A stretch of DNA of 64,000 bases from Escherichia coli (GTDB lineage: Bacteria > Pseudomonadota > Gammaproteobacteria > Enterobacterales > Enterobacteriaceae), in the NCBI RefSeq assembly GCF_017348835.2, contig NZ_CP071375.1; one strand, written 5' to 3'. This document shows positions 25,555 to 54,142 of the stretch, piece by piece (the stretch's first letter is position 1; the number at the start of each line of letters is the position of its first letter). The position numbers and the translations under genes were made by a program. The notes below the pieces were generated by a model that saw nothing but the letters and a program-made list of their open reading frames with translations, was not told the origin of the DNA and did not search any database.

Positions 25555-25590
25555 CGATGCCGGATGCAGCATTTACGCCGCATCCGGCAG
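25555..25590. repeat. REP palindromic unit between convergent djlC and hscC
   Basis: gccggatgc...gcatccggc palindrome. Confidence 0.65.
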
Positions 25591-25596
25591 CCGTGA

Positions 25597-27267
25597 TTAT
25601 GGGATCTCAATGGCTAAATAAACGCTCGCCCGCCGCCTGACCTCATCGACGCGGGCCATATCGTTTGACTGCAACGCCGCATCAAAATCGGTGATCACCC
25701 GGCCAATCTCTTCTCGCTCGTCACCCAGCGCCCGCGCCCACAACTCTTCCAGTTTGGCTTTAAAGGTACGATTGATGAGCATATCGCGCGGATAAATTTT
25801 CAATGCGGATAACCGCGTCCGACTCTCTTCAATCTGCTGCGCGCTCAATGTTACCGGGCTGTGGTTAATCACTCTGGACTTAATGCTGCCGTCTTCCAGA
25901 AGCACGTCAACTTCAAGCAAACCGTTGATATCATAACTAAAGCGAATATCAATCGACTGATAAGCCCCGGTTTTCTTCAACGGCACATCGAAGGATTCCA
26001 CCAGAATGTTGTTTTTAACTTTGTGGTTTTCTCCCTGATAGACGTTAACCGTAATTGAATCCTGTTCCGGGTGCATGGTTGAATAAGTTTCTACACGCGA
26101 CACGGGCACAGTGGTGTTTCGTTCAATAATCGGCGAGAAAATGCCGGAAACGCCCTGACGGTTAACCTCAACGCCCAACGAGTAAGGGCAAATATCAGTG
26201 AGGATCACTTCTTCAATATCTTCACTGCGTAAGCGGCAGGCAGCCTGGATTGCTGCGCCCAGCGCTACAATGGTGCTCGGATCGTAACTTTGATACGGTA
26301 ATTTGCCAAACAGACGCACGGCGATTCGCTGCACCAGCGGCATTTGTGACGCGCCGCCAACCAGCACCAGACTGTCGATTTGACTCGGCTTCAGACGCGC
26401 ATCGCGCAACGCCTGTTCAATCGGCACTCGCAAGCGATTGAGCAGCGGCAACCACAAATCTTCCAGTTCGTTCTCGTAAAATTCGCATTCCCGCGTTTCA
26501 TCCTGGTACTGCCAGCGAATGTGCATTGGCGATTGATTGCTACATTTTGCCGCTTCCACACAGGCGTACAAGGCTGCCAGTTCACTCTCGTTAAGCGTGG
26601 TCCTGGCGACATCCGCGCGCTTTAAAACGTCATCGACCAACATATGGGTAAAATCTTCGCCACCGAGGAAGTTATCGCCAGCGGAGGCGTGAACTTCAAT
26701 CACCGGCGTGGCGTACTCAAGCACCGTGACGTCAAACGTGCCGCCACCGAGATCAAACACTAGCGAACGGGTATTTTGTTGGGTATGCAGGCCATACGCC
26801 ATCGCAGCTGCTGTGGGTTCATTAATTAAGCGTACCGCATTTAACCCGGCTAACTCCGCTGCTAAACGGGTATGCTTGCGTTGTTCATCGCTGAAATAAG
26901 CCGGAACAGAGATCACCACATCTTTAATCGGACGTTGCAGAAATTCTTCGGCATCTTCTTTTAATGAGCGCAATACCAAAGAGGACAGTTCTGGCGCGTT
27001 AAATGTGTCGCTGCCTAACCGCCAGTTGGTATTACTGCCCATTGCACGTTTAAATAACGCTGCCGTTTTATCCGGATGCGAAGTACGCCGTGATACAGCC
27101 GGTTTTCCGACTAAAATATGATTATTTTCATCCATGCTAATTATGGATGGTGTTAAATATTCACCGAACTTATTTGGAATTAATTGCGCGGCACCGTCTT
27201 TCCAGACGGCAATTAAACTATTGGTAGTACCGAGATCGATACCAATGGCGAGTTCTGCATTATCCAT
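25597..27267 (-). CDS. hscC: Specialised Hsp70-family chaperone HscC
   Basis: 556 aa; Hsp70 ATPase signatures (IGIDLGTTNS, DLGGGTFD); shorter than DnaK. Confidence 0.95.
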   Translation of the reverse strand: MDNAELAIGIDLGTTNSLIAVWKDGAAQLIPNKFGEYLTPSIISMDENNHILVGKPAVSRRTSHPDKTAALFKRAMGSNTNWRLGSDTFNAPELSSLVLRSLKEDAEEFLQRPIKDVVISVPAYFSDEQRKHTRLAAELAGLNAVRLINEPTAAAMAYGLHTQQNTRSLVFDLGGGTFDVTVLEYATPVIEVHASAGDNFLGGEDFTHMLVDDVLKRADVARTTLNESELAALYACVEAAKCSNQSPMHIRWQYQDETRECEFYENELEDLWLPLLNRLRVPIEQALRDARLKPSQIDSLVLVGGASQMPLVQRIAVRLFGKLPYQSYDPSTIVALGAAIQAACRLRSEDIEEVILTDICPYSLGVEVNRQGVSGIFSPIIERNTTVPVSRVETYSTMHPEQDSITVNVYQGENHKVKNNILVESFDVPLKKTGAYQSIDIRFSYDINGLLEVDVLLEDGSIKSRVINHSPVTLSAQQIEESRTRLSALKIYPRDMLINRTFKAKLEELWARALGDEREEIGRVITDFDAALQSNDMARVDEVRRRASVYLAIEIP

Positions 27268-28286: not shown

Positions 28287-28403
28287 TGTTGCTCCTTGTT
28301 GTGTGCTTCTTTGCGACAAGGGTAACGCCAGGATGTAACAGATACGAGGGGCGAAACGATAAAGCGTGAGATGGCGCGCAATTGGGTATGCGCGCCAGAG
28401 TGA

Positions 28404-29129
28404 TTAATGCAGGATTTTCGCGAGGAAGTCTTTTGCGCGGTCCGATTTCGGATCATCGAAGAAAGCGTCTTTCGGCGAGTCTTCGACAATTTTACCCTCG
28501 TCCATAAAGATCACCCGATTCGCCACTTTACGGGCAAAGCCCATTTCGTGGGTCACCACCATCATGGTCATTCCTTCGTTCGCCAGTTCGACCATTACGT
28601 CCAGCACTTCGTTGATCATCTCCGGATCCAGCGCCGATGTCGGTTCGTCGAACAGCATGGCAATAGGATCCATACACAATGCGCGAGCGATCGCCACACG
28701 CTGCTGCTGACCGCCGGAAAGCTGCGCCGGAAATTTATTGGCATGTGCGGAAAGTCCCACGCGCTCCAGCAATTTCAATGCTTTTTCACGAGCCGGCGCT
28801 TTATCGCGTTTAAGCACTTTCACCTGCGCCAGGGTCAGGTTTTCGATAATCGACAGATGAGGGAACAGCTCGAAATGTTGGAATACCATCCCGACGCGAG
28901 AACGCAGCTTTGCCAGATCGGTTTTCTTGTCGTTAACCACGATACCATCGACGGTGATTTCACCTTGCTGCACTGGTTCGAGGCCGTTGACGGTTTTAAT
29001 CAGCGTTGATTTGCCGGAACCAGACGGGCCGCAAACCACCACTACTTCGCCTTTTTTCACTTCGGTTGAGCAGTCGGTCAGCACCTGAAAGTGACCATAC
29101 CATTTTGAAACATTTTTCAGGGTAATCAT
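28404..29129 (-). CDS. gltL: Glutamate/aspartate ABC transporter ATP-binding protein
   Basis: 241 aa; Walker A (GPSGSGKST), ABC signature (LSGGQQQR). Confidence 0.95.
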
Positions 29130-38961: not shown

Positions 38962-39050
38962 TTGCCGGATGCGTGCCAACCGTAGGTCGGATAAGACGCG
39001 GCAGCGTCGCATCCGACATTGAAGGATAAGACGTGTCAACATCGCATTCG
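38962..39050. repeat. REP/BIME cluster downstream of ubiF
   Basis: Tandem imperfect palindromes of the gccggatgcg / cgcatccgac type. Confidence 0.6.
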
Positions 39051-39808: not shown

Positions 39809-40150
39809 ATCTTTTTTTTCGCGATACCTTATCGGCGTTGCGGGGCGCATTATGCGTATAGAGCCTTGCAGCGTCAACCTCTTTTTCAAGGAAAATTGCT
39901 CGAAAGTGACTGTTTGGTTAGGTTGCGAACAGCGTGGCGCTATATTCGTCAATTATTGTTTACTTTGTGTTTTTTCCCACCCTACAGCCATTCTTTTGTC
40001 ATACAGGATGAAATTCGGAATTTAACAATAGTGGTGGGAAATTAATCTATGAAATACTGGCCTACAGTGATGAGTTGTCAAACAGTGATGTGGCAAACCC
40101 GGAACATTTCCTTACTGCATATCAGAATCAACAAGCACCTCAATAACTGA

Positions 40151-40178
40151 AACAGCCCCGGATTTCACCGGGGCTGTT
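40151..40178 (-). terminator. Hairpin terminator downstream of asnB
   Basis: aacagccccgg-atttca-ccggggctgtt perfect stem. Confidence 0.6.
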
Positions 40179-40187
40179 TCGCATTTC

Positions 40188-41852
40188 TTACTTATACGCC
40201 GACTGGTGAACACCAACCGCGCGACCAGACGGATCGTCCATTTTCTTGAACGCTTCATCCCATTCGATCGCTTTAGCGGAAGAACACGCGACGGAAGGAC
40301 CGCCCGGCACGCACTCAGCGGCACTCGGAAGCGGGAATAGTTCTTCAAAGATCTCCCGGTACAGATACGCTTCTTTTGAGGTCGGTGTGTTGTACGGGAA
40401 GCGGAAGCGGGCAGTTTCCAGCTGTTGATCAGAAACCTGCTGCGCCGCCACTTCTTTCAGGGTGTCGATCCAACTGTAACCGACGCCATCGGAGAACTGC
40501 TCTTTCTGCCGCCAGGCCACGCTTGCGGGCAGGTATGACTCAAAACATTCACGCAGGATGTGTTTTTCCATCTTGCCGTTACCGCACATTTTATCCTGCG
40601 GGTTAATGCGCATCGCCACGTCGAGGAATTTCTTGTCGAGGAACGGAACGCGTGCTTCCACGCCCCAGGCTGACATCGCTTTGTTGGCACGGGCGCAGTC
40701 ATACATATGCAGGGCCAGCAGTTTACGCACCGTCTCTTCATGCAGTTCTTTGGCATTCGGTGCTTTGTGGAAGTAAAGATAACCGCCAAACACTTCATCA
40801 GAACCTTCACCGGACAGCACCATTTTAATGCCCATCGCTTTGATCTTACGCGACATTAAATACATCGGTGTTGAAGCGCGAATAGTGGTCACATCATAGG
40901 TTTCGATGTGGTAAATCACGTCGCGGATGGCGTCCAGACCTTCCTGTACAGTGAAGTGAATTTCATGATGCACAGTGCCCAGATGGTTTGCCACTTCCTG
41001 GGCTGCTTTCAGATCCGGTGAACCCGGCAGACCTACAGCAAAGGAGTGTAACTGCGGCCACCAGGCTTCAGAGCGTTCCTGATCTTCCACGCGACGGGCT
41101 GCGTATTTCTTGGTGATAGCGGAAATAATTGAGGAATCCAGACCACCAGAAAGCAGCACACCGTAAGGCACATCAGACATCAGATGGCTTTTAACGGAAT
41201 CTTCCAGAGCCTGACGCAGCTCGTTTTTGTCGGTGACATTATCTTTCACCGCATCGTAGTCGAACCAGTCGCGATGATAATAAGAACGGATTTCGCCGTC
41301 CTGACTCCACAAATAGCTCCCCGCCGGGAACTCTTTAATCGTGCGGCATACCGGCACGAGGGCTTTCATTTCTGAGGCCACATACAGCTGACCATGTTCG
41401 TCATAGCCCATATACAGTGGGATGATCCCCAGATGGTCGCGACCAATCAGGTAGGCATCTTTTTCGCTGTCGTACAGGGCAAAGGCAAACATGCCCTGCA
41501 AGTCGTCGAGAAATTCCGGCCCTTTTTCCTGATACAGCGCGAGGATCACTTCACAGTCAGACCCTGTCTGGAACTGATAACGATCGCCGTATTCAGCGCG
41601 CAATGCCTGGTGATTGTAGATTTCACCGTTTACCGCCAGTACGTGGGTTTTTTGTTGGTTGTAGAGAGGTTGCGCCCCCGCGTTAACGTCAACAATTGAC
41701 AGACGTTCGTGGGCGAGAATGGCGTTATCACTGGCATAAATACCGGACCAGTCCGGGCCACGATGACGCATCAGGCGTGACAGCTCGAGTGCTTTCTTAC
41801 GCAGCTCAACTGCGTCTGTTTTGATATCGAATACGCCAAAAATTGAACACAT
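40188..41852 (-). CDS. asnB: Asparagine synthetase B (glutamine-hydrolysing)
   Basis: Start at the internal ATG 41852 (MCSIFGV..., Cys2 nucleophile, 554 aa); the ORF-track extension to 41933 is not used. Confidence 0.95.
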   Translation of the reverse strand: MCSIFGVFDIKTDAVELRKKALELSRLMRHRGPDWSGIYASDNAILAHERLSIVDVNAGAQPLYNQQKTHVLAVNGEIYNHQALRAEYGDRYQFQTGSDCEVILALYQEKGPEFLDDLQGMFAFALYDSEKDAYLIGRDHLGIIPLYMGYDEHGQLYVASEMKALVPVCRTIKEFPAGSYLWSQDGEIRSYYHRDWFDYDAVKDNVTDKNELRQALEDSVKSHLMSDVPYGVLLSGGLDSSIISAITKKYAARRVEDQERSEAWWPQLHSFAVGLPGSPDLKAAQEVANHLGTVHHEIHFTVQEGLDAIRDVIYHIETYDVTTIRASTPMYLMSRKIKAMGIKMVLSGEGSDEVFGGYLYFHKAPNAKELHEETVRKLLALHMYDCARANKAMSAWGVEARVPFLDKKFLDVAMRINPQDKMCGNGKMEKHILRECFESYLPASVAWRQKEQFSDGVGYSWIDTLKEVAAQQVSDQQLETARFRFPYNTPTSKEAYLYREIFEELFPLPSAAECVPGGPSVACSSAKAIEWDEAFKKMDDPSGRAVGVHQSAYK

Positions 41853-42098
41853 AACCTTCTCCGTTAACCTGGTATTTGTTGCTTGTTGTGTTTGCTTGTT
41901 TAAAAAAATGCCGCAAAGCAGCACTGTGCGCAAGCGATTTGGCGGTGAAAAAATAAAAAACGTAATGGTGATTGCTGATTTGTGAAAAAGGGGAGGGTGC
42001 GGTGATGTATTTATTAATGGATCGATAATTTTTGGCGGGTTTTATTGAATGTTTATATTTTACGGGGGCCAAATTGCTGACAAAGTGCGATTTGTTCA

Positions 42099-42198
42099 TG
42101 CCGGATGCGGCGTGAACGCCTTATTCGGCCTACAAAAGCATGAAAATTCAATAAATTGCAGGAGCTGCGTAGGCCTGATAAGCGTAGCGCATCAGGCA
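42099..42198. repeat. REP/BIME cluster between asnB and umpH
   Basis: tgccggatgcggcgtgaacgccttattcggcctac and gtaggcctgataagcgtagcgcatcaggca palindromic units. Confidence 0.7.
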
Positions 42199-42248
42199 GT
42201 TTGGCGTTTGTCATCAGAGCCAACCACGTCCGCAGACGTGGTTGCTAT

Positions 42249-43001
42249 TCAGATAACGTCGATTTCAGCGACCGATGGGTAAATCCAGCTGGGGCGGAAC
42301 GGCATACTGTCGATATCGTCGAGCGATGAAACACCAGAGAGCACCAGAATCGTCTCCAGACCTGCCTGGAAGCCGGCCAGAATATCGGTACGCAGGTTAT
42401 CGCCGACAATCACCGTTTCTTCCGAATGTGCCTGCATTTTGTTTAATGCCGCGCGGATAATCCACGGACTCGGCTTACCAACATAGAACGGTTTACGCCC
42501 GGAGATTTTTTCGATCCCTGCACACAACGCGCCACAGGCGGGATAAAAACCGCGCCCGTGGGTGTCCGGGTTGGTGGCGATAAAACGTGCACCGTTAGCG
42601 ACGAAATAGGCCGCTTTATGCATCATGTCCCAGTTGTAGGAACGCGTTTCGCCAACAATCACAAAATCAGGGTTCACATCGGTAATAGTGAAACCGGCTT
42701 TGTACAGTTCATGAATCAGTGCGCCTTCGCCCACCACATACGCTTTCTTGCCTTCCTGGCGACGCAGGAAATCGGCGGTCGCCATCGCAGAGGTATAAAA
42801 CACGCTGTCAGGTACATCGACACCGGCAGTGGCAAAGCGGTTCGCCAGATCCTGCCCGGTCTGCGAAGGATAGTTGGTCAGCAACACCAGCGGCAGGCCT
42901 TTATCCATAATCCCGTGCAAAAATTCCGCTGCACCCGGTACGGCGACGTTATCGTGCATCAGCACGCCGTCGATATCGCAAATTACATTTTTAATGGTCA
43001 T
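42249..43001 (-). CDS. umpH: UMP phosphatase (HAD superfamily)
   Basis: 250 aa; HAD motif I DIDGVL. Confidence 0.94.
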   Translation of the reverse strand: MTIKNVICDIDGVLMHDNVAVPGAAEFLHGIMDKGLPLVLLTNYPSQTGQDLANRFATAGVDVPDSVFYTSAMATADFLRRQEGKKAYVVGEGALIHELYKAGFTITDVNPDFVIVGETRSYNWDMMHKAAYFVANGARFIATNPDTHGRGFYPACGALCAGIEKISGRKPFYVGKPSPWIIRAALNKMQAHSEETVIVGDNLRTDILAGFQAGLETILVLSGVSSLDDIDSMPFRPSWIYPSVAEIDVI

Positions 43002-43048: not shown

Positions 43049-44269
43049 TTAATTTTCCAGCAAATGCTGGAGCAAAATACCGTTGAGCATGGCGCGTTTT
43101 ACCAGCGCAAAAGCGCCGATTGCCGAGCGGTGATCCAGCTCAGAACGTACCACCGGCAGATTAGTACGAAACGCCTTCAGCGCCTGGGTATTAATGCAGC
43201 TTTCAATAGCAGGGAGCAGCACTTTATCGGCTTCGGTGATTTCACCGGCAATAACAATTTTTTGCGGATTAAATAAGTTGATAGCAATGGCGATGGTTTT
43301 GCCCAGATGACGACCGACATACTCAATCACTTCCGAGGCCAGGCTATCGCCTTTGTTCGCGGCTTTGCAGATAGTTTTGATGGTGCAGTCGTCCAGCGGC
43401 ACGCGGCTCTGGTAGCCCTGCTTTAACAGATTCAACACCCGTTGTTCAATGGCAGCGTTGGCGGCGATAGTTTCCAGGCAGCCAAAGTTGCCGCAGTGGC
43501 AGCGTTCACCCAGCGGTTCGACCTGAATATGGCCAATTTCACCGACGTTGCCGTTGCGGCCAATAAAAATGCGCCCGTTAGAGATAATCCCGGCCCCGGT
43601 TCCGCGATGGACACGCACCAGAATGGAGTCTTCGCAATCCTGACTTGCACCGAAGTAGTGCTCTGCCAGCGCCAGACTACGGATATCGTGGCCGACAAAA
43701 CAGGTCACTTTAAAACGCTCTTCCAGTGCTTCTACCAGCCCCCAGTTTTCCACCTGAATATGCGGCATGTAATGAATTTTGCCGCTGTCCGGGTCAACAA
43801 GTCCAGGCAGGATCACGGAAATGGCGATCAGCTCGCGCAGCTTGCGTTGGTAGCTATCAATAAACTGAGCAATGGCATTCAGCAGGGCATGTTCCAGCGT
43901 CTGCTGGGTACGTTCCGGCAGCGGGTAATGTTCTTCTGCCAGCACTTTGCTGCTGAGATCAAACAGAGTGATGGTGGCGTCATGACGACCAAGCCGTACG
44001 CCGATTGCGTGGAAATTGCGGGTTTCGGTGACGATAGAGATAGCGCGGCGGCCCCCGGTGGAGGCCTGCTGATCAACTTCTTTGATCAGCCCGCGTTCGA
44101 TAAGCTGACGCGTAATTTTGGTTACGCTGGCGGGGGCAAGCTGGCTTTGCTCGGCAATCTGAATCCGCGAGATTGGCCCGTACTGGTCAATCAGGCGATA
44201 AACCGCCGCGCTGTTAAGCTGTTTTACGAGATCAACATTACCTATCTGAGCTTGTCCGCCTGGTGTCAT
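43049..44269 (-). CDS. nagC: N-acetylglucosamine repressor NagC (ROK family)
   Basis: 406 aa; N-terminal HTH and ROK signature with Cys/His zinc site (HCHCGNFGCLE). Confidence 0.95.
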   Translation of the reverse strand: MTPGGQAQIGNVDLVKQLNSAAVYRLIDQYGPISRIQIAEQSQLAPASVTKITRQLIERGLIKEVDQQASTGGRRAISIVTETRNFHAIGVRLGRHDATITLFDLSSKVLAEEHYPLPERTQQTLEHALLNAIAQFIDSYQRKLRELIAISVILPGLVDPDSGKIHYMPHIQVENWGLVEALEERFKVTCFVGHDIRSLALAEHYFGASQDCEDSILVRVHRGTGAGIISNGRIFIGRNGNVGEIGHIQVEPLGERCHCGNFGCLETIAANAAIEQRVLNLLKQGYQSRVPLDDCTIKTICKAANKGDSLASEVIEYVGRHLGKTIAIAINLFNPQKIVIAGEITEADKVLLPAIESCINTQALKAFRTNLPVVRSELDHRSAIGAFALVKRAMLNGILLQHLLEN

Positions 44270-48565: not shown

Positions 48566-48574
48566 TCTGCTTTA

Positions 48575-48604
48575 TGCCTGATGCGACGCTTGAGCGTCGC
48601 ATCC
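48575..48604. repeat. REP-like palindrome downstream of nagE
   Basis: tgcctgatgcgacgcttgagcgtcgcatcc. Confidence 0.55.
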
Positions 48605-48613
48605 AACAATGAC

Positions 48614-50448: not shown

Positions 50449-50611
50449 GCCGGATGGGGCGTTTACGTCGCATCCGGCAAGGAACAGACAAACAGTTTCA
50501 AACGCTAAATTGCCTGATGCGCTACGCTTATCAGGCCTACATGATCTCTGCAATATATTGAGTTTGCGTGCTTTTGTAGGCCGGATAAGGCGTTCACGCC
50601 GCATCCGGCAA
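50449..50611. repeat. BIME: three REP palindromic units downstream of glnS
   Basis: Units at about 50449-50480, 50512-50541 and 50577-50611 in alternating orientation. Confidence 0.7.
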
Positions 50612-50629
50612 GAAATATGCAAACAATCC

Positions 50630-52832: not shown

Positions 52833-52863
52833 TAAAAAAGCCAACCCGCAGGTTGGCTTTTCT
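52833..52863. terminator. Bidirectional terminator between chiQ and fur
   Basis: aaaaaagccaacc-cgca-ggttggctttt; A-run and T-run on either side. Confidence 0.75.
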
Positions 52864-52876
52864 CGTTCAGGCTGGC

Positions 52877-53323
52877 TTATTTGCCTTCGTGCGCATGCTC
52901 ATCTTCGCGGCAATCGCCTTCGGCACAGTGACCGTAAAGATAGAGACTGTGGTTAGTCAGGCGAATGCCATGTTTTGCGGCAATTTCACGCTGACGCGCT
53001 TCGATGGAGTCATCACTAAATTCGATTACCTTGCCGCAGTCGAGGCAGATCAGGTGATCGTGGTGATGTTGCTGTGTCAGTTCAAATACGGATTTACCGC
53101 CTTCAAAATTGTGGCGGGTGACGATACCAGCATCGTCAAACTGGTTCAGTACGCGATATACCGTAGCCAGACCAATTTCTTCACCCATATCGATCAGACG
53201 TTTGTATAAATCTTCCGCACTGACGTGATGGTTGTCCGGCTCCTGAAGAACTTCCAGGATTTTTAAACGAGGAAGCGTTACTTTCAGGCCAGCTTTCTTT
53301 AGGGCGGTATTGTTATCAGTCAT
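52877..53323 (-). CDS. fur: Ferric uptake regulator
   Basis: 148 aa; HHDH...CxxC metal-site motifs. Confidence 0.97.
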   Translation of the reverse strand: MTDNNTALKKAGLKVTLPRLKILEVLQEPDNHHVSAEDLYKRLIDMGEEIGLATVYRVLNQFDDAGIVTRHNFEGGKSVFELTQQHHHDHLICLDCGKVIEFSDDSIEARQREIAAKHGIRLTNHSLYLYGHCAEGDCREDEHAHEGK

Positions 53324-53402
53324 GCGGAATCTGTCCTGTTACTAAGCGGTTCACTTCATTAGAAGAAGTGACAGAATTTGCTCTTGAGATAATGCGTATC
53401 AT
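53316..53402 (-). CDS. uof: uof, 28-codon upstream ORF translationally coupled to fur
   Basis: Translation MIRIISRANSVTSSNEVNRLVTGQIPHD; its stop overlaps the fur start; present as the C-terminal part of track ORF 53316..53552. Confidence 0.75.
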   Translation of the reverse strand: MIRIISRANSVTSSNEVNRLVTGQIPHD

Positions 53403-53406
53403 TATA
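53388..53406 (-). promoter_or_regulatory. Fur box at the fur promoter, overlapping the uof start codon
   Basis: Minus-strand tataATGATACGCATTATC matches the Fur-box consensus; the ATG is the uof start. Confidence 0.7.
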
Positions 53407-53611
53407 GAATTGCCACGCCTAAATGAAAACCACAAGTCCCTGGCAAATATTGTTAATAAAAACGTGGCACAGCTTACATTTACAACAGCAAGGCCACTTG
53501 AACACCGGGACATTGTACAGGTACAACAGCAAAAGTTACAAATTTGTAGCAATTATTTTGATTGGCATTATCTATTAATACGGCGTAGACATGAGTCTAC
53601 GCCGCATCACA

Positions 53612-54142
53612 TCAGGCATTGAGAATTTCGTCGAGATGCAACTCTTCAGAAATCTGTTTAACCCATTTTTCTACACGTTCAGCGGTCAGTTCCGGCTGAC
53701 GGTCTTCGTCGATAGCCAGACCGACAAAGTGGTCGTCATCTGCCAGACCTTTTGATGCTTCGAAATGATAGCCCGCAGTTGGCCAGTGACCAACGATGGT
53801 TGCACCGCGCGGTTCAATGATGTCGCGGATGGTGCCCAATGCGTCGCAGAAATATTCGGCGTAATCTTCCTGGTCACCACAACCAAACAGCGCAACCAGT
53901 TTGCCATTGAAATCAATCTCTTCGAGAGTCGGGAAGAAGTCATCCCAGTCACACTGCGCTTCGCCGTAATACCAGGTTGGGATGCCCAGCAGCAGAATGT
54001 CATAAGCTTCCAGATCTTCTTTGCTGCTTTTTGCAATGTCATGGACATCGGCAACGTCTTTACCAAGCTGTTTTTGAATCATTTTTGCGATATTTTCGGT
54101 ATTACCGGTGTCGCTGCCGAAAAAGATGCCAGTGATAGCCAT
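53612..54142 (-). CDS. fldA: Flavodoxin 1
   Basis: Start at the internal ATG 54142 ([16 protein letters not shown]..., 176 aa); ORF-track start at 54259 is too far upstream. Confidence 0.95.

Follow-up and report, generated by a model that had tools for sequence, protein, structure and literature searches.

A conserved RNA hairpin at the mapped 3' end of the fldA transcript, upstream of uof-fur in Escherichia coli

In E. coli, stable stem-loops that have no U-rich tail can mark steady-state 3' ends and protect them, and changes in U content could switch such hairpins between Rho-dependent and intrinsic modes in evolution (Dar & Sorek 2018, NAR; PMC6061677). Intrinsic terminators place a stable GC-rich stem-loop on the transcribed strand and a U-tract in the 7-8 nt directly 3' of the stem, with the transcript ending about 7-9 nt after the stem. 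Repetitive extragenic palindromic (REP) elements have a consensus of ~35 nt (an outer GCC(G/T)GATG...CATC(C/A)GGC stem and a CTAC tail), are mobile and dispersed, and as stable extragenic palindromes are able to stabilise upstream mRNA.

Here we describe a hairpin between fldA and the fur promoter region that is a member of a common, well-described class and not a new kind of element. It resembles the weak or leaky subclass of E. coli intrinsic terminators, having a GC-rich stem-loop right after a stop codon, a 3' end 7 nt past the stem, a terminator score above threshold, and a U-tract in the orthologues of several genera. It differs from them in that the fldA tail UAUUAAU is not a U-run, the d-score is -7.3, a terminator scan is negative, and substantial read-through into uof-fur is documented. 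With the protective stem-loops of Dar & Sorek it shares its stability, the lack of a uridine-rich tail and a precise 3' end just downstream, and the proposed switching matches the tails found across species; however, their class was defined on Rho-dependent transcripts, whereas the fldA end shows no bicyclomycin (BCM) effect (a Rho score of 0.92, which is confounded) and is followed by RNA that is AU-rich, C-poor and not rut-like. With REP elements the hairpin has a 10-nt core in common (GATGCGGCGT), and it too is a stable extragenic palindrome able to stabilise upstream mRNA, but it occurs in single copy, without the outer stem or the tail, and its position is kept from genus to genus.

The window, by which we mean the whole 64,000-nt stretch of E. 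coli DNA that was analysed (NCBI RefSeq assembly GCF_017348835.2, contig NZ_CP071375.1), carries ybfF, ybfE, fldA, uof and fur on the minus strand at this locus; coordinates are given in Table 1 and convert to MG1655 by adding 657323. According to Conway et al. (2014, PMC4161252), ybfE-fldA-uof-fur is one operon with three promoters, and fur can be co-transcribed with fldA, as Jaworska et al. (2021, PMC7867234) state with reference to Zheng et al. Across 53300-53700 the window differs from MG1655 at a single position, 53487 (A here, G at MG1655 710810), which lies in a poorly conserved stretch of the fldA-uof spacer. The same 401 bases were found in 5,424 of 5,426 complete E. coli genomes, with a median of one place per genome.

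Table 1. Features of the fldA-fur locus and REP-type palindromes, in window coordinates.
Feature	Position	Strand	Description and basis
Core hairpin	53581..53604	-	Perfect 10-bp GC-rich stem CGGCGUAGAC / GUCUACGCCG; loop UCAU on fldA-sense RNA
Extended RNA stem	53576..53609	-	15 bp with two G·U pairs; folding at -24.6 to -26 kcal/mol
A/U-only tail UAUUAAU	53574..53580	-	Mapped fldA mRNA 3' end is the last U
Sequence-conserved block directly 3' of the hairpin	53512..53577	-	About 90-100% across 47 species (conservation profile); fur regulatory region, not hairpin
fldA (flavodoxin 1) CDS	53612..54142	-	Stop TGA 53612-53614; open reading frame list and RefSeq annotation
uof	53316-53402	-	Annotation; reached by read-through
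fur	52877-53323	-	Annotation; reached by read-through
REP-type palindromes GCCGGATGCG(G/A)CG...CTTATCCGGCCTAC	25563-25597, 38990-39025, 42092-42125, 48570-48612, 50450-50486, 50582-50617		

The fldA hairpin and its mapped transcript end

The palindrome ggcgtagac-atga-gtctacgcc is present on the plus strand at 53582-53603 exactly as the initial annotation gave it, and its placement just 3' of the fldA stop and upstream of uof-fur was confirmed. Inverted-repeat and hairpin scans showed that the next base on each side (c/g) also pairs, which lengthens the perfect stem to 10 bp around a loop of 4 nt. On the fldA-sense (minus-strand) RNA the stem extends further, beginning 2 nt past the stop codon UGA, and the two G·U pairs of this extension are A·C mismatches on the plus strand. 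The folding energies differ between the strands, with the sense stem of 13-15 bp reaching -22.3 to -26 kcal/mol (z = -7.5 and -5.6 against dinucleotide shuffles) and the plus-strand RNA forming the 10-bp core only, at -18.7 kcal/mol (z = -2.9 against dinucleotide shuffles). As in intrinsic terminators, a stable GC-rich stem-loop is therefore present on the transcribed strand. A search of the Rfam 15 covariance models gave no match over 53560-53625 at E-values of up to 10.

The sense-strand tail after the GC core, UAUUAAUAGAUAAU, has four U in its first 8 nt and a longest run of two, so the absence of a U-tract claimed in the initial annotation is correct in the strict sense. The 7-8 nt directly 3' of the stem, where an intrinsic terminator has its U-tract, read UAUUAAUA and contain no such tract, though they are entirely A/U.

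In the Term-seq data of Adams et al. (2021, eLife, PMC7815308, supplementary files 1 and 3), the minus-strand end at MG1655 710897 is classed as the ‘primary’ fldA 3' end and has 47,785 reads on average. In window coordinates this end is 53574, 7 nt beyond the final G-C pair of the core, which is within the 7-9 nt typical of intrinsic terminators in vivo, and the 61-nt context printed by Adams et al. puts it at the last U of ...GUCUACGCCGUAUUAAU. It was called only in LB at an OD600 of about 0.4. The transcript end of the palindrome is thus already in a published map and is not new. The doubt raised in the initial annotation, that the palindrome might be neither conserved nor associated with a transcript end, is also answered: the structure is conserved across species, and the Term-seq end lies 7 nt after the stem. 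We consider it very probable that the palindrome reflects, in DNA, an RNA hairpin of fldA-sense orientation that lies where the fldA (and ybfE-fldA) message ends.

Proposed weak termination and protection of the fldA end

Our preferred reading, to which we give a probability of roughly 55%, is that the hairpin acts at the end of the fldA mRNA as a leaky (weak) intrinsic terminator that also protects the 3' end. RNA polymerase leaving fldA would transcribe a very stable GC-rich stem-loop and then the all-A/U tail, where a fraction of polymerases would be released by weak, Rho-independent intrinsic termination, giving the 3' end at 53574, and the hairpin would shield the resulting end against 3'-to-5' exonucleases. 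The remaining polymerases would pass through the OxyR/Fur-controlled fur promoter region into uof-fur, producing the known fldA-fur co-transcript. The mapped end at the hairpin, taken with the documented co-transcription, indicates that transcripts both stop at and cross the hairpin; the end would be made by termination and not by cleavage or trimming, and the leakiness would be functional.

Several measures bear on the strength of such a terminator. Under the Chen model the fldA end has an intrinsic-terminator score of 19.7, on a scale where values of at least 3 are read as compatible with an intrinsic mode (Adams et al. 2021, PMC7815308). The Rho score obtained with BCM, a Rho inhibitor, is 0.92 and not significant (PMC7815308), but it is confounded because the downstream 800-nt window includes fur's own promoters; in the table of Adams et al., coverage is 494 downstream of the end versus 220 upstream. 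Our consensus terminator scan, which requires at least five T in 8 nt, did not call the hairpin. We obtained a d-score of -7.3 for the sense-strand hairpin and -39 for the antisense orientation, values that are indicative only, the d'Aubenton-Carafa formula having been combined with modern energy parameters. Canonical terminators with a hairpin and a T-run scored +5 to +50 elsewhere in the window, and REP or in-gene palindromes scored -22 to -75; on this indicative scale the fldA hairpin is borderline, as expected for a leaky site. Although no U-run is present, a tail of A/U alone would make the RNA-DNA hybrid weak. The earlier judgement that this is not an efficient canonical terminator is upheld by the lack of a U-run, the negative scan, the borderline d-score and the known continuation into uof-fur.

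No experiment on in vitro termination, or on factor-independent release with purified components, at the fldA site was found in the searchable literature, and a phrase search on fldA terminator, transcript or mRNA returned nothing relevant. The TERMITe supplements do not have fldA among their entries, and the one text match to fldA in a nanopore annotation preprint was accidental.

The tail was compared across the Enterobacterales using a FldA protein scan, which located 80 loci in 80 different species and, with the window, gave 81 sequences. The best single hairpin after the fldA stop reached -12 kcal/mol or lower in 75/81 (mean -18.8 kcal/mol; like the other cross-species figures, uncorrected for phylogeny), against a mean of -7.8 kcal/mol for shuffles of the same sequences, 20 of 162 of which reached -12. 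The hairpin starts no more than 8 nt past the fldA stop in 72 sequences. Fewer than five U are present in the 8 nt after the stem in 69 of the 81, so the hairpin is more conserved than the U-tract. Citrobacter typically has the tail AUCAAUAG, with only two U in 8 nt; Enterobacter has an inner stem-loop followed by CGUUUU; and true U-runs follow the orthologous hairpin in Atlantibacter, some Yersinia, and Pantoea/Erwinia. The presence of a U-tract in some lineages suggests a terminator ancestry, while the retention of the hairpin where intrinsic termination should be very poor favours a role in protection.

It is quite possible, if less probable than our preferred reading, that the hairpin only protects and that no polymerase is released there. 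Longer transcripts would then be cut, for example by RNase E, or would end downstream, and PNPase or RNase II would trim them back to the hairpin, making 53574 a processing product; Term-seq does not discriminate termination from trimming. Stem-loop 3' ends that are not U-rich in their tails and are shielded from PNPase and RNase II are a documented E. coli class (Dar & Sorek 2018, PMC6061677), and the steady-state fldA end likewise lies directly after a stable stem-loop whose tail is not rich in U. Many species with just 1-3 U in 8 nt keep the hairpin, with compensatory changes, the spacer 3' of it is very AU-rich, and the portion of Conway et al. on ybfE-fldA-uof-fur (PMC4161252) names no internal terminator there. 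The ends of Dar & Sorek are, however, Rho-dependent, unlike what the (confounded) Rho score suggests here, and the high Chen-model score, an end placed exactly 7 nt past the GC stem in an all-A/U tail, as for real termination, and the genuine U-tract at the same hairpin in some relatives all argue for release at the site. The initial annotation had proposed an ‘RNA stability element’, and this stays a live option because hairpins with tails that are not U-rich define and protect 3' ends; ‘weak terminator’ describes the element at least equally well.

By analogy, leaky termination with end protection could be sensitive to translation, although we regard this as rather improbable. With the stem starting 2-8 nt past the stop, and no more than 8 nt past it in most species, a ribosome terminating on fldA would cover the 5' arm and block the hairpin, acting as a ‘valve’ by which the closeness of translation to transcription would set whether polymerase stops or runs on into uof-fur. 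Repression by the ribosome has been documented for the terminator tR2 when it is placed a few bp after a gene (PMC4824070).

Selection on the RNA helix, and the operator and REP readings

Covariation was assessed in a sequence-only MAFFT alignment of 47 species using RNAalifold. The consensus comprises 10 pairs, nine of which show double-sided compensatory changes, with 95.9% of cells paired and 85 cells carrying double changes (not corrected for phylogeny). Not one of the five measures was matched by any of 500 shuffles, and pairing fell to 24-51% when the partner was slid by 1-3 columns. Among the 47 species there are 42 distinct stem sequences, the loop varies freely in length and sequence, and in the conservation profile few intergenic positions vary more than those of the upper stem and loop; at the GGCG/CGCC base of the stem, conservation is 90% or higher.

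The departures from Watson-Crick pairing are biased towards one strand. In the paired columns, G·U on the sense strand occurs 34 times versus three for A·C, which is G·U on the other strand. A strand-symmetric finder returned 59 G·T versus 30 A·C, a noisy count in which the wrong hairpin was picked at some loci. When the best hairpin was chosen independently for each strand, the sense strand gave the lower energy in 62 species, against 13 for the antisense strand and six ties (again uncorrected for phylogeny). Together, the covariation, the sense-strand G·U bias and the sense folding indicate, at the level of sequence comparison, that selection acts on the RNA helix of the fldA transcript and not on a DNA operator read by a protein.

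The ‘protein-binding palindrome’ of the initial annotation is consequently unsupported, as the stem sequence turns over with compensatory changes and with a G·U bias on the fldA-sense strand. A dimeric regulator binding an operator here, between fldA and the fur promoter, would fit a perfect dyad beside promoter sequences under dense regulation (OxyR, Fur, CRP and OmpR are all reported for fur), as well as the conserved base of the stem. Such an operator is nevertheless very unlikely: the half-sites themselves are not conserved, the asymmetries favour sense G·U, a bias that a DNA-binding protein would not select, the loop is free to vary, and the sequence-conserved DNA block starts only past the hairpin. 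We rejected this reading on the 47-species covariation and strand bias, which revealed neither conserved half-sites nor strand-neutral asymmetry.

That the hairpin is a REP element or the remnant of one is similarly hard to credit. Both arms have a match in the true REPs of the window, one through the 10-mer GATGCGGCGT and the other through CGCC.TAT, and the core GATGCGRCGY has 10 matches in the window versus one expected, the fldA hairpin being one of the 10 and most of the others lying in REP-like palindromes. Against this, the hairpin has neither the outer GCCGG/CCGGC stem nor the CTAC tail and has five extra stem pairs; it has one match in the window when three mismatches are allowed, and the locus has a median of one place per genome (5,424 E. 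coli genomes). Its orthologous position is conserved across genera, unlike that of mobile REPs. The REP reading was rejected because the ~35-nt consensus is unmatched beyond the 10-nt core and CGCC.TAT, and because the element is not dispersed.

A chance palindrome without function, for which its short length and nothing else speaks, can be dismissed, as the window holds 12 distinct perfect hairpins (stem of at least 10 bp, loop of 3-8 nt) versus 0.53 expected from dinucleotide-preserving shuffles, an excess of about 20-fold that leaves chance no serious explanation, and as the structure covaries in 47-80 species and has a mapped transcript end.

Other palindromes in the window were recorded alongside. 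Three perfect GC-rich hairpins of 9-13 bp, without a U-tract and in minus-strand sense, have the same architecture as the fldA hairpin (40149-40180, 42221-42244 and 28372-28397) and sit 4-8 nt past the stops of the minus-strand open reading frames 40188..41933, 42249..43001 and 28404..29129, respectively; Adams et al. list no Term-seq end at any of the three. A perfect 9-bp palindrome, GCTGATCAA-NNNNN-TTGATCAGC, lies at 44068-44090 inside a 406-aa minus-strand open reading frame (43049..44269), and its sequence recurs in the context that Adams et al. print for a nagC Term-seq 3' end classed as ‘internal’.

The fur control region and what a partial stop would mean

The conserved block directly 3' of the hairpin contains ATAG-N7-CAAT-N7-ATTG-N7-TTTG, abutting a promoter-like TTGTAA-18-TACAAT at 53541..53512 found in a promoter scan, and the mapped fldA 3' end falls within the first ATAG. 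We take ATAG-N7-CAAT-N7-ATTG-N7-TTTG to be OxyR-site-like, with 14 of the 20 specified positions of the OxyR motif matching in a hand count. Judged from its sequence, the block is probably an OxyR-activated fur/uof promoter. An OxyR roadblock was considered as the source of the 3' end and rejected, as a protein bound from 53575 onward would stall the polymerase with its active site in the loop, about 12-18 nt upstream, and not at 53574. Further along the spacer, the stretch TATAATGATACGCATTATC (53388-53406, minus strand) is highly conserved and resembles the consensus of the Fur box. A promoter-like -10, TATAAT, contains the uof start ATG, so a promoter with that -10 could not transcribe a translatable uof. 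Activation of fur by OxyR has been described (Zheng et al. 1999, as given in citing papers).

Two further transcript ends lie close to fur in the data of Adams et al. One, a strong end at window 53322 on the minus strand (MG1655 710645), has 137,086 reads in LB at 0.4 and 180,817 in a second condition; it coincides exactly with the overlap between the end of uof and the start of fur, is flagged ‘uORF’, and has a low terminator score of 1.1 and a Rho score of 1.1. The other is a plus-strand end at MG1655 710187 (window 52864), beside a bidirectional terminator of hairpin and T-run, AAAAGCCAACC-CGCA-GGTTGGCTTTT, at 52836-52861 between the convergent chiQ (plus) and fur (minus). The d-score of this terminator is +6.6 for the plus strand and +31.5 for the minus strand.

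The importance of the hairpin is modest: it sets the end of an essential flavodoxin message. Together with its leakiness, it would set the share of SoxRS-driven fldA transcription that reaches fur; for the operon as a whole, this link has been described before. We may speculate that a partial stop placed just ahead of the fur control region could reduce the interference caused by transcription from upstream, and, if stopping does depend on translation of fldA, Fur synthesis and occlusion of the fur promoter would be tied to fldA expression under SoxRS induction. For the family, the locus is a clean case in which the structure of one orthologous hairpin is kept and its tail shifts between U-rich and U-poor across genera, and these varying tails illustrate the easy evolutionary switching that has been proposed between terminator types.
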